64,000 bases of DNA. Source: Escherichia phage EF1-1. The stretch lies in the sequence record PQ571289; one strand, given 5' to 3'. Positions 21,688 to 24,600 of this stretch are shown piece after piece (the stretch's first letter is position 1; each line of letters starts with the position of its first letter). The translations under genes were made by a program, and so were the position numbers. The notes beneath the pieces were generated by a model. It was not told the DNA's origin. It saw nothing but the letters and a program-made list of their open reading frames with translations, and did no database searches.

Positions 21688-24600
21688 TCAGTGACAGGAT
21701 GCCCAGGAATTCCCCACGTCATATCCAGCAGTAAGCTGAACATTAAGATTGTAAAATTCTCCAGCTTTAGTAACAGCTAAAGCAGCAAGTTCACCTGCCC
21801 GACTATAAGCTGTAAACCATCCACCTTTGGGAGATTCATGAATGTTAGCCCAAATTTGCCCTGTCTCTTTTTCCTTATTATGCTTCCATTCTTCAACTTT
21901 AGCAAGGCATTCTTTATCAATTTTCTTTTGTTCTTCAGGATCGTCTACTTTCTTCCAACCTAATGATTCCGGTGAAAACCATTTGAATTCTACAAGGTTA
22001 CGAGAAACTTCAAGCTGGGCTTCATCGTGATATGCAATCATTTGTTGCACGAAGTCTTTATTCTTCCAGTCATCTTTAAAGAAGTCAACACTTAGCCCTT
22101 CTTCTTCGATCATGTCATCATAAATAACCATTGCACGTTTAGCACAGATAACCCCACCGCTTTGGAACAGAGAGTTAAGAATCGCGTGAGCAGAACGAGT
22201 AGGAACCTTACGACCGTCAATACCCAAAACATATTGTTTACCAGTCTTAACCCAGAAATCGTTTAAACGTTCTTTAAGACGCGCCAATGGGAATGCAGCT
22301 TCCCAGAAAGCATCGAACACCAATTGACCTGTAAACTTGTCGCTACCAATTGTTTTAGCAACCTTGTCGGCTTGTGCACCATAGGTAATACCATACTTAA
22401 CAGATTTAGCAGGACTACGTTCAAATTTACGTCCAATAGTTTCAGTGATACGTTTTGCCATCATTGTGTGAACATCGTTAGGTTTCTCTAACAACAGAGC
22501 GTTACAATATTCGTGTGGCTCCGGCTCGTACCGCCAACAGTTTCCTGTGATGGTAATGCAGTCTTTCTGACGCATGACCCACGTACCAAGTTCTGTTTGT
22601 GGACACCAAACATCCTCTACACCCCACTCTTCAATAGTCAAACTTTGAACAGGAATGTGAGAGCGGTTAGTCAATGTTGCCACTTTTACTTTCTGCTCTT
22701 TTGTATTGAAAGCTACAGAGATATTGCCTCCATGCACCAGGTACGAGGCAGTTAAAGCTGCTTCAAAAAGTTCACCTGGGTTCTGCGCCCAACGCCAAAC
22801 AGGTTTTTGTTTATGTTCGTGCCAGTAACCATCTGCAATCAAGAAACCTTCCAAGAAAGCTACACGCTCGGCATGAGACATATTAACTACACGTTCTACC
22901 CACGGAACATCCCATTTACCTTGTTGAACAGAAGTTAAACTATTTACCTGATCTTGTTCCATGTTAAATGGAGCATTACAAATAATGTTATCTCCTGTGC
23001 AAAGCTCGGCAGTTGTTCTGACTTTAGGCACATAAGTATTCCCTTTACTACGGGTATTAACATACCAACGGTGATCTGCTGTTGCACGGTAAGTGTGTGA
23101 TTTCCCTTTAATCTCAAACGTCTTACTATTTTTATAGAAGACCTTACCTTTTACTTTAGTCCATTCTTTCAGACCTGTTTCAGCATTGTACCCTAAAATC
23201 TCATCCCCTTCCTTCAGGTCGTGATATCCTACCCAACCTTTACGAGTCAAAGCTTGAGCATCCATCGGCACACAGTAATGCGATTCAATTTTTGCTTCCA
23301 AAGAGTCGAAGTCGTAGCCGATCTGGAAGTATTTAGGAACCTCTACACCAAACAAGTTACGCATCTCCCACCCAAACAAAGATGTGACACGAGGAATATT
23401 AGCTACAGATCTATGCTTCATACGAGAGGTTGCAGCATCACATGTAGCGGCTGGGGTAGGAATACGCCCATCCGCCCTTACTGCGGCTAAGAAACCTTTA
23501 TCGTATTCTTGATCTTCTTCATCTTCTTCCCAATCAGCACCGCCACCTAAAATAGAGTTCCTACGATGCTTATACGTTAAGTATTCTACAATCTGTGTAG
23601 CATAAGGAAACTTCTCACCCAAAGCTTGCAGGTTAGGACAAATTTCTTTTTCCTGACCTTTGGTAAAACACGGGTTAGTCAATACTTTAAGACCGCGACC
23701 TTTACCTTTTGCTATACGCTCTTGAATCTTCCTTTCCAAGGTTTCCGGTGTGCACTCCAGATGATCACAACGATCCTGACAAAAATTAGAAGATAGAGTT
23801 TGCTCAACGTAAGCTCGAATACCTTTCTGAAGCTCTTCCTCGCTCTTTTTAATCTTGGTGCCAGATTTAAGAGTCAAGTCTTTATCTTTATATTCAGACG
23901 GTACCCAACCTAATCCTACAAGCCAGTTTTTAATATGGGTAGTATCGTTCAATGTTGCAGGGATGTTAGGATCACACAAAGGCTCATCTGCTGCAACTGG
24001 CAGTTTCCACTCTTTCCCCAACATCACTAACCACCAATCTCCATCCCTCTCTTCCAAATGACCATCATGTTTCTTAGCAAAATTGATCATATGGTTAGTT
24101 GGCTCTAAGTTCTTTTTAATTTGCAACTTAGGTGGAATAAAAGCCTTAAGATAACCTTTTGTTGCTGGTTTAGGTGGCAAAATAGGCTCAACAAGTAAAC
24201 GAAGACGCTCCATTTCTGCATCCAAAAAAGCAAGGTTCTCTTCTGCTTGTTTCATGTTAAAAGCAAACCCACGGTGCTCCTGGCGTGTAATAATGTCTGC
24301 TACACGTTGTTCAAGTTCAAATGGACCTTCCCATTTATCATAATCACCCCATTCTTCCATAAGGTAATTATATACGCTCGTATTGGCTTTGTTGTCATAG
24401 ATACAGTAATAAAGCATATCCGCAGCAAAAGTCTTAAATCGATCTTCTTCTGGAATCTCTTTACGGAAATCTATTTTTACATCACCACCTGCCTTTCGAG
24501 AAAGTGCTGCCAAACTATGTCCTGATTTGCCCTCAATCTTTCGATCTGGGTTTAACACTTTACTCAAAATCAAGGAGTCAATAAGTTTTACCTTATTTTT

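Follow-up and report, generated by a model that had tools for sequence, protein, structure and literature searches.

A predicted 245-residue intein with a hybrid class 1/class 3 signature in the DNA polymerase of Escherichia phage EF1-1

What is the 245-residue block that lengthens the family A DNA polymerase of Escherichia phage EF1-1 to 1110 residues, and is it an intein that still works? We analyzed a stretch of 64,000 nucleotides of this phage (sequence record PQ571289), hereafter the window. The source is a Phapecoctavirus-type (Stephanstirmvirinae) E. coli myophage, whose polymerase gene shares 98.4% identity with its counterpart in phage anhysbys. A first-pass annotation, made without database searches, had proposed an intein splitting motif A, perhaps a degenerate one. 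Our comparisons indicate that the block is very probably a functional and mobile intein, most likely using the class 1 route that starts at its first cysteine (Cys1); splicing, the initiating cysteine, the role of Arg69 and nuclease activity are predictions from sequence. The polymerase precursor is laid out as follows.

Positions 21688 to 25020, minus strand: open reading frame (ORF) of the family A DNA polymerase precursor, 1110 amino acids plus stop, GTG start, from the ORF list.
Positions 23275 to 25020, minus strand: N-extein, residues 1-582 (exonuclease domain, thumb, palm to motif A), from the alignment with the intein-less Ro121lw polymerase.
Positions 23275 to 23313, minus strand: motif A segment DFDSLEAKIESHY, with Tyr582 as the -1 residue.
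Positions 22540 to 23274, minus strand: intein, 245 amino acids (polymerase residues 583-827), the in-frame block CVPMD...ITITGN.
Positions 21691 to 22539, minus strand: C-extein, residues 828-1110 (fingers with motif B, palm with motif C), from the Ro121lw and T7 alignments.

The same polymerase exists with and without the block. The polymerase matches 127 phage records, and the whole gene is covered in 33 of them. Many other matching records, at 98-99% nucleotide identity, give a split alignment whose two segments span 78% of the gene; their polymerases lack exactly these 735 nucleotides, and the junction reads ESHY/CWRY (a slash marks an insertion site or intein junction here and below). 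The comparison with intein-free homologs that the first-pass annotation had suggested as a check gave a clear answer, since the polymerase of phage Ro121lw reads AKIESHY-CWRYEPE with a gap of exactly 245 codons. The boundaries of the block, Cys583 to Asn827 followed by Cys828 (window positions 22540 to 23274), were confirmed to the base. The occupied allele has DFDSLEAKIESHY before the intein and CWRYEPEP after it, and the empty allele around the site reads GAATCACATTAC/TGTTGGCGGTAC. The block is an in-frame insertion in a conserved host protein, precisely absent from close homologs, as is characteristic of inteins, and its ORF is free of frameshifts or stops.

The host protein is a family A polymerase by its motifs A, B and C and by profile matches to Pfam DNA_pol_A (43.8 bits, cut-off 34.3) and PHROG 17 (3.9e-106). 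After removal of the block it aligns with T7 DNA polymerase (E=1.2e-19). In this alignment DFDSLE corresponds to T7 motif A (D475...E480), Asp570 is equivalent to T7 Asp475 and Glu575 to T7 Glu480, and the insertion junction maps between T7 F487 and M488, 12 residues past the catalytic Asp570. The alignment places the insert at the end of motif A and not inside it.

A first search with the intein returned nine relatives, in other host proteins. A profile built from eight trimmed inteins found 255 proteins. When 1.84 billion cluster representatives were scanned exhaustively with HMMER, 9330 proteins passed E<=0.001 and 694 passed E<=1e-30. All conservation counts given here refer either to the 254 complete inteins extracted from these searches or to a 114-member alignment. 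The intein blocks are located as follows.

Positions 23251 to 23274, minus strand: block A, CVPMDAQA, starting at Cys1 (Cys583); Cys1 is found in 254/254 family members.
Positions 23065 to 23082, minus strand: block B, T65-A-D-H68-R69-W70 (T65 at B:7, H68 at B:10, R69 at B:11, W70 at B:12), located by family conservation.
Positions 22567 to 22614, minus strand: block F, DVWCPQTELGTWVMRQ, with Cys224 (F:4; Cys806 in polymerase numbering) 21 residues before the terminal Asn; V-W-C in 114/114.
Positions 22537 to 22560, minus strand: block G, CITIT243-G244-N245, plus the +1 nucleophile Cys828; T-G-N ends 251/254 members.

The residues expected for junction chemistry (Cys583, T65-A-D-H68, Asn827 and Cys828) are all present and conserved in the family. 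Thr65, His68, Val222-Trp223-Cys224, Thr243, Gly244 and Asn245 are invariant in the 114-member alignment, where Trp70 is found in 112 sequences and Lys or Arg occupies B:11 in 103; at +1 the 254 inteins are followed by Ser (175), Thr (48) or Cys (31). A confident AlphaFold2 model of the intein, built from a 10-sequence alignment (pLDDT 81.6, pTM 0.81), has the HINT fold of inteins, with a beta-rich core broken by one helix-strand-strand-helix-strand-strand unit at residues about 125-202. Thus the intein call itself is borne out by the precise presence/absence polymorphism, the fold and the family-wide conservation. Every motif quoted in the first-pass annotation is present, and its TxxH of block B and LAGLIDADG-type domain are supported; it had missed the Trp-Cys-Thr (WCT) triplet described below, and had not recognized that the endonuclease-like module amounts to a single LAGLIDADG half.

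Several results weigh against a functional, mobile intein that starts at Cys1. The proposed check against curated intein profiles did not come out in its favor: Pfam Intein_splicing (PF14890) reaches 16.6 bits against a cut-off of 35.8 (E=0.007), Pfam LAGLIDADG_3 12.8 bits against 22.5 (E=0.15), and an NCBIfam scan of the intein gave no intein match. There is one LAGLIDADG motif per chain, which makes endonuclease activity uncertain, and a palindrome scan of the empty target, a weak test of a homodimeric endonuclease, found at best 6/11 symmetric positions. Finally, the WCT triplet stands at class 3 spacing and is equally invariant, so that Cys224 could be the true initiating nucleophile. As to the profiles, matches to the VMA and RecA inteins among Protein Data Bank (PDB) sequences were also weak, and the single-sequence scans against Pfam, PHROG, NCBIfam and PDB sequences were sub-threshold only, but they agreed in direction. 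Sequence divergence is a feature of the family, most of whose members are likewise sub-threshold in curated profiles.

These profile scores, the missing penultimate and block F histidines and an endonuclease module cut down to a single motif would suit an intein that is inactive or in decay, or else a plain insertion domain that stays in the polymerase unspliced and is tolerated there. However, the same apparent defects recur without exception in hundreds of relatives that are 25-50% identical, a pattern that points to selection and not to drift. Many viable phages, moreover, carry the insert in an essential enzyme, 12 residues away from its catalytic Asp, with no frameshift or stop in the ORF. 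The T-G-N end is also functional in the intein that gives the best solved-structure match to the family profile, AceL NrdHF (E=1.3e-5; PDB 6ZGQ). AceL NrdHF ends T144-G145-N146 and has neither of the two C-terminal catalytic histidines; its splicing is lost in the G145H mutant, and its Arg69, at B:11, forms a hydrogen bond to the C-scissile carbonyl (Hoffmann et al. 2020, PMC7891396). The window intein shares this end and has Arg69 at the same B:11 position. It differs from AceL NrdHF, a class 3 split intein, in that the latter has Ala1, Met at B:12 and a ribonucleotide reductase host, lacks a LAGLIDADG domain, and occurs in nature as two halves separated by a free-standing GIY-YIG gene. A second precedent is the mycobacteriophage Bethlehem gp51 (RDF) intein, which also has a penultimate Gly, splices completely and is slowed by a change of Gly to His (PMC5050341); this phage intein belongs to another host protein and another lineage, and a WCT triplet has not been reported for it. 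Because the penultimate Gly is fixed across the family (114/114, with T-G-N in 251/254), it is a family trait and not a sign of decay, with Arg69 taking over the role of the missing His in AceL NrdHF. The suggestion of a degenerate intein is thus not upheld, and we consider an inactive block highly improbable.

If the block is a working intein, which cysteine begins the reaction? Class 3 inteins have no N-terminal nucleophile and carry a triplet of Trp (B:12), Cys (F:4) and Thr (G:5), the block F Cys being the initiator (PMC2807308, PMC3196547, PMC7664689). The window intein has this triplet: Trp70 lies two residues after the block B His, Cys224 21 residues before the terminal Asn, and Thr243 two before it. 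By linear residue position, the spacing is identical to that of MchDnaB1 (H65/W67/C124/T143/N145), MP-Be DnaB (C320/T339/N341) and Msm DnaBi1 (W67/C118/T137/N139). The triplet is at exact class 3 spacing in 214/254 relatives, and most of the others differ by small indels. The N-terminal apparatus is that of class 1, with Cys1, the B:7 Thr (T65) and the B:10 His (H68) all invariant. Two typical class 1 helpers, which are common but not obligatory, are replaced (Cys224 stands in place of the F:4 Asp and Gly244 in place of the penultimate His), and block F lacks its His; both replacements have precedents in the literature. The classical class 3 inteins MP-Be DnaB, MchDnaB1 and Msm DnaBi1 resemble the window intein in WCT spacing, phage association and replication-protein hosts. 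They differ from it in lacking an N-terminal nucleophile, in usually lacking the B:7 Thr, in keeping the penultimate His and in having Ser or Thr at +1. The window intein is not class 3 by the operational definition, because it has Cys at position 1, as do all 254 relatives; as read from its residues, its N-terminus is that of class 1 and its active-site triplet of class 3 type.

A class 3 route would have Cys224 attack the Tyr582-Cys583 bond and pass the branched thioester to Cys+1, with Cys1 dispensable or auxiliary. The invariant triplet is compatible with such a route, but the first residue of class 3 inteins varies and is not a nucleophile, and the B:7 Thr is generally missing from them, whereas Cys1 is found here in 254/254 and this Thr in 114/114 members. 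Kelley et al. identified the block B Thr as the class 1 "spring-loading" residue, generally absent from class 3 inteins. The operational definition of class 3, the known class 1 inteins with Cys at F:4, and the +1 Cys, a position nearly always Ser or Thr in class 3 inteins, also argue against it. A search of the clade for natural loss of the WCT triplet or of Cys1, which could reveal covariation, found essentially none. Tori et al. (2010) described three WCT inteins whose first residue is Ser or Cys, without settling to which class they belong. On the residues present, initiation at Cys1 is the more probable of the two and somewhat likely in its own right, and initiation at Cys224 is less likely, though not negligible.

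With initiation at Cys1 as the preferred reading, splicing may proceed as follows. The polymerase would be translated as a 1110-residue precursor, in which folding of the HINT core would bring Tyr582/Cys583 beside Asn827/Cys828. An N-to-S acyl shift would most likely occur at Cys1, aided by Thr65 and His68, with Cys224 in the block F position held by Asp in ordinary class 1 inteins, and the N-extein acyl group would be handed on to Cys+1. Cyclization of Asn245 would free the intein, the scissile carbonyl probably being polarized by Arg69 (B:11) and not by a penultimate His, as in AceL NrdHF. A final S-to-N shift would give an 865-residue polymerase reading ESHY-CWRY across the junction, plus the free intein.

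Tori and Perler (J Bacteriol, 2011) reportedly examined WCT inteins with Ser1 or Cys1; the same authors are said to have proposed a phage progenitor for class 3 inteins. Speculatively, a large (694 cluster representatives at E<=1e-30), phage-borne and essentially undescribed clade that keeps the class 1 apparatus together with the full WCT triplet could be the surviving form of such a progenitor, or could use a two-cysteine relay, with its single-motif module acting as a dimer or nickase; we hold this reading to be rather unlikely.

Whether the intein also promotes its own spread depends on the module inserted in its core.

Positions 22666 to 22914, minus strand: single LAGLIDADG-type half-domain, intein residues about 121-203 (helix-strand-strand-helix-strand-strand).
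Positions 22828 to 22854, minus strand: sole LAGLIDADG motif, LEGFLIADG, intein residues 141-149, with Asp148 as the putative metal-binding acid.

The modeled module has the LAGLIDADG arrangement of a helix with an acidic end followed by a strand-strand-helix-strand-strand core. One motif only is found in 107/111 domain-bearing relatives. The motif Asp-Gly is kept in 110/114 members; of the four exceptions, three are mini-inteins that lack the domain altogether. Among the small forms, P0005 has the same host protein and the same intein as P0002 with the LAGLIDADG-like module precisely deleted (163 versus 245 amino acids), and P0008 and P0009 have 162 and 142 amino acids. The P0005/P0002 pair looks like a snapshot of endonuclease-domain loss, and because some relatives have lost the module precisely, it is dispensable for the fold. 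The class 1 LAGLIDADG inteins TliVMA, PI-SceI, PI-PfuI and PI-PkoII have two LAGLIDADG motifs per chain, Asp at F:4 and a penultimate His. They are far larger (366-537 residues), in contrast to the window intein with its one half-domain, Cys at F:4 and penultimate Gly, and to our knowledge a single-motif LAGLIDADG module in an intein has not previously been described. A single motif supplies one catalytic acid, so activity would need dimerization or be limited to nicking.

The intein may splice actively with a half-domain that is no longer, or never was, a nuclease, and spread by co-infection recombination or with a nuclease supplied in trans. The one motif and one catalytic Asp per chain, against larger matched solved intein endonucleases (PI-SceI, PI-PfuI, TliVMA), the non-palindromic empty target and the mini-inteins would all fit this. 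A candidate for the trans-acting nuclease adjoins the polymerase, a free-standing gene of HNH/AP2 type.

Positions 21071 to 21661, minus strand: 196-amino-acid ORF directly downstream of the polymerase; RefSeq records call its family "HNH endonuclease" or "AP2 domain" protein.

This ORF has no Pfam match. Its occurrence in related phages is sporadic, with an identity of 96% in iGC_PHA_EC001 and of about 80-87% elsewhere, and it looks like an independent free-standing element of homing-endonuclease type. As a mobilizer of the intein we rejected it: it adjoins the intein-less polymerase of Shigella phage SF1-1, is absent at high identity from most intein-bearing phages, and does not co-vary with the intein. 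The half-domain, for its part, keeps the motif Asp-Gly in 110/111 domain-bearing members at a constant module size of about 95 amino acids, which suggests purifying selection, and the family has colonized many sites and host proteins. Retention and constraint of the module in most members favor a role in mobility, and a non-nuclease half-domain is quite possible, if on balance the poorer explanation.

The distribution of the intein among phages is sporadic and speaks for movement. It is carried by 34/127 matching phage records at 90-100% identity. Between the window and phage PaulScherrer, of another genus, the intein has 92.1% nucleotide identity, compared with 72.6% for the N-extein and 78.8% for the C-extein. 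Among identical residues, identical codons make up 79.5% in the intein versus 54-57% in the exteins. Conservation of the intein far above that of the exteins indicates horizontal transfer after the polymerases diverged. On the reading as a mobile intein, its DNA would spread into empty polymerase alleles during co-infection, presumably helped by the LAGLIDADG half-domain.

A second site in the same polymerase is used by a related intein.

Positions 22375 to 22419, minus strand: motif B, RSPAKSVKYGITYGA, an empty second intein site, occupied in phage nepoznato and relatives by a related 324-amino-acid intein between G and I/C.

Twelve records carry this different intein (KSVKYG/C...TLTGN/CTYGAQ), which has two LAGLIDADG motifs, is 32% identical to the window intein and, in phage nepoznato (L003, 3001-3972), likewise shows C1...W...C...T-G-N. 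Alleles with the motif B intein read TWRYDNPDHAY at the motif A site, versus CWRYEPEPHEY. No record among the phage records examined has both inteins, and the family hidden Markov models, run on all six frames of the entire window, found no second intein. Three 146-kb GenBank records labeled as Campylobacter jejuni phages (MG065639, MG065645 and MG065656; "Campylobacter phage" A150, A145 and C3) have the polymerase of E. coli Phapecoctavirus, and the motif B intein in it shows 99.7% identity; the stated host seems questionable.

In family A polymerases generally, the family uses motif B (AKTFIYA/TLYGAG), a TGR.../SPN site and the site occupied in the window. The last is also used in three distant T7-like polymerases (P0152, P0153 and P0168), which read GDASALEGRVQGHY/intein/T[WY][RK]YDNG. 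The polymerase-borne inteins of the family share 43-49% identity with that of the window. The hosts of most family members are small phage proteins without known function (metagenomic, P0002-P0068 and others), interrupted at a conserved FDVYP/SAYANGWA site or within a few residues of it. Some of these proteins match Pfam DUF6321, DUF5872 or DUF5661, and Pfam intein models rarely reach threshold on them. P0128, P0135, P0144, P0146, P0172, P0233 and P0237 each contain two family inteins at different sites of one protein.

Is the element new? It is less novel than had been assumed: GenBank records MZ501100 (Escherichia phage PaulScherrer, Bas60) and PQ821640 (phage SD2) already carry the label "intein-containing DNA polymerase precursor". 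The intein there is this very element in the same position, with an amino acid identity of 97.6% over all 245 residues, in a host polymerase of another genus whose exteins show 73-79% nucleotide identity, and it is annotated only. The BASEL paper found inteins by comparative annotation, with no further analysis (Maffei et al. 2021, PMC8594841). The PaulScherrer "intein" mat_peptide (L001, 3004-3738) is off by one codon, running VPMD...ITGNC, because Cys flanks both ends; chemically sensible boundaries are C1...N245 at L001 3001-3735. Other records name the gene "DNA polymerase I" or "hypothetical protein", and the NCBI pipeline gives plain "DNA polymerase I". Our literature search found no paper discussing an intein in this phage group, and a 2024 paper stated that inteins had not been reported from coliphages (PMC11162368). 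The element is an uncharacterized intein of known type whose existence is already in public annotation. Three features are out of the ordinary: a T-G-N end combined with the hybrid class 1/class 3 signature, a lone LAGLIDADG half-domain, and the size of the unannotated family.

Inteins in phage replication genes are common, and redox control is known for other inteins. The Pfam and NCBIfam intein models miss the family entirely, so that unlabeled phage inteins probably number in the hundreds to thousands, with the sizes of their host proteins misread. A natural intein with Cys1, the B:7 Thr, the class 3 triplet and a T-G-N end provides a test case for class 3 splicing having arisen from class 1. 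The intein is compact and must work in E. coli, the host of the carrier phages, and it could have practical use. For the phage itself, maturation of the replicative polymerase would depend on splicing at a three-cysteine site (Cys1, Cys224 and Cys+1), where redox control of polymerase splicing is conceivable.
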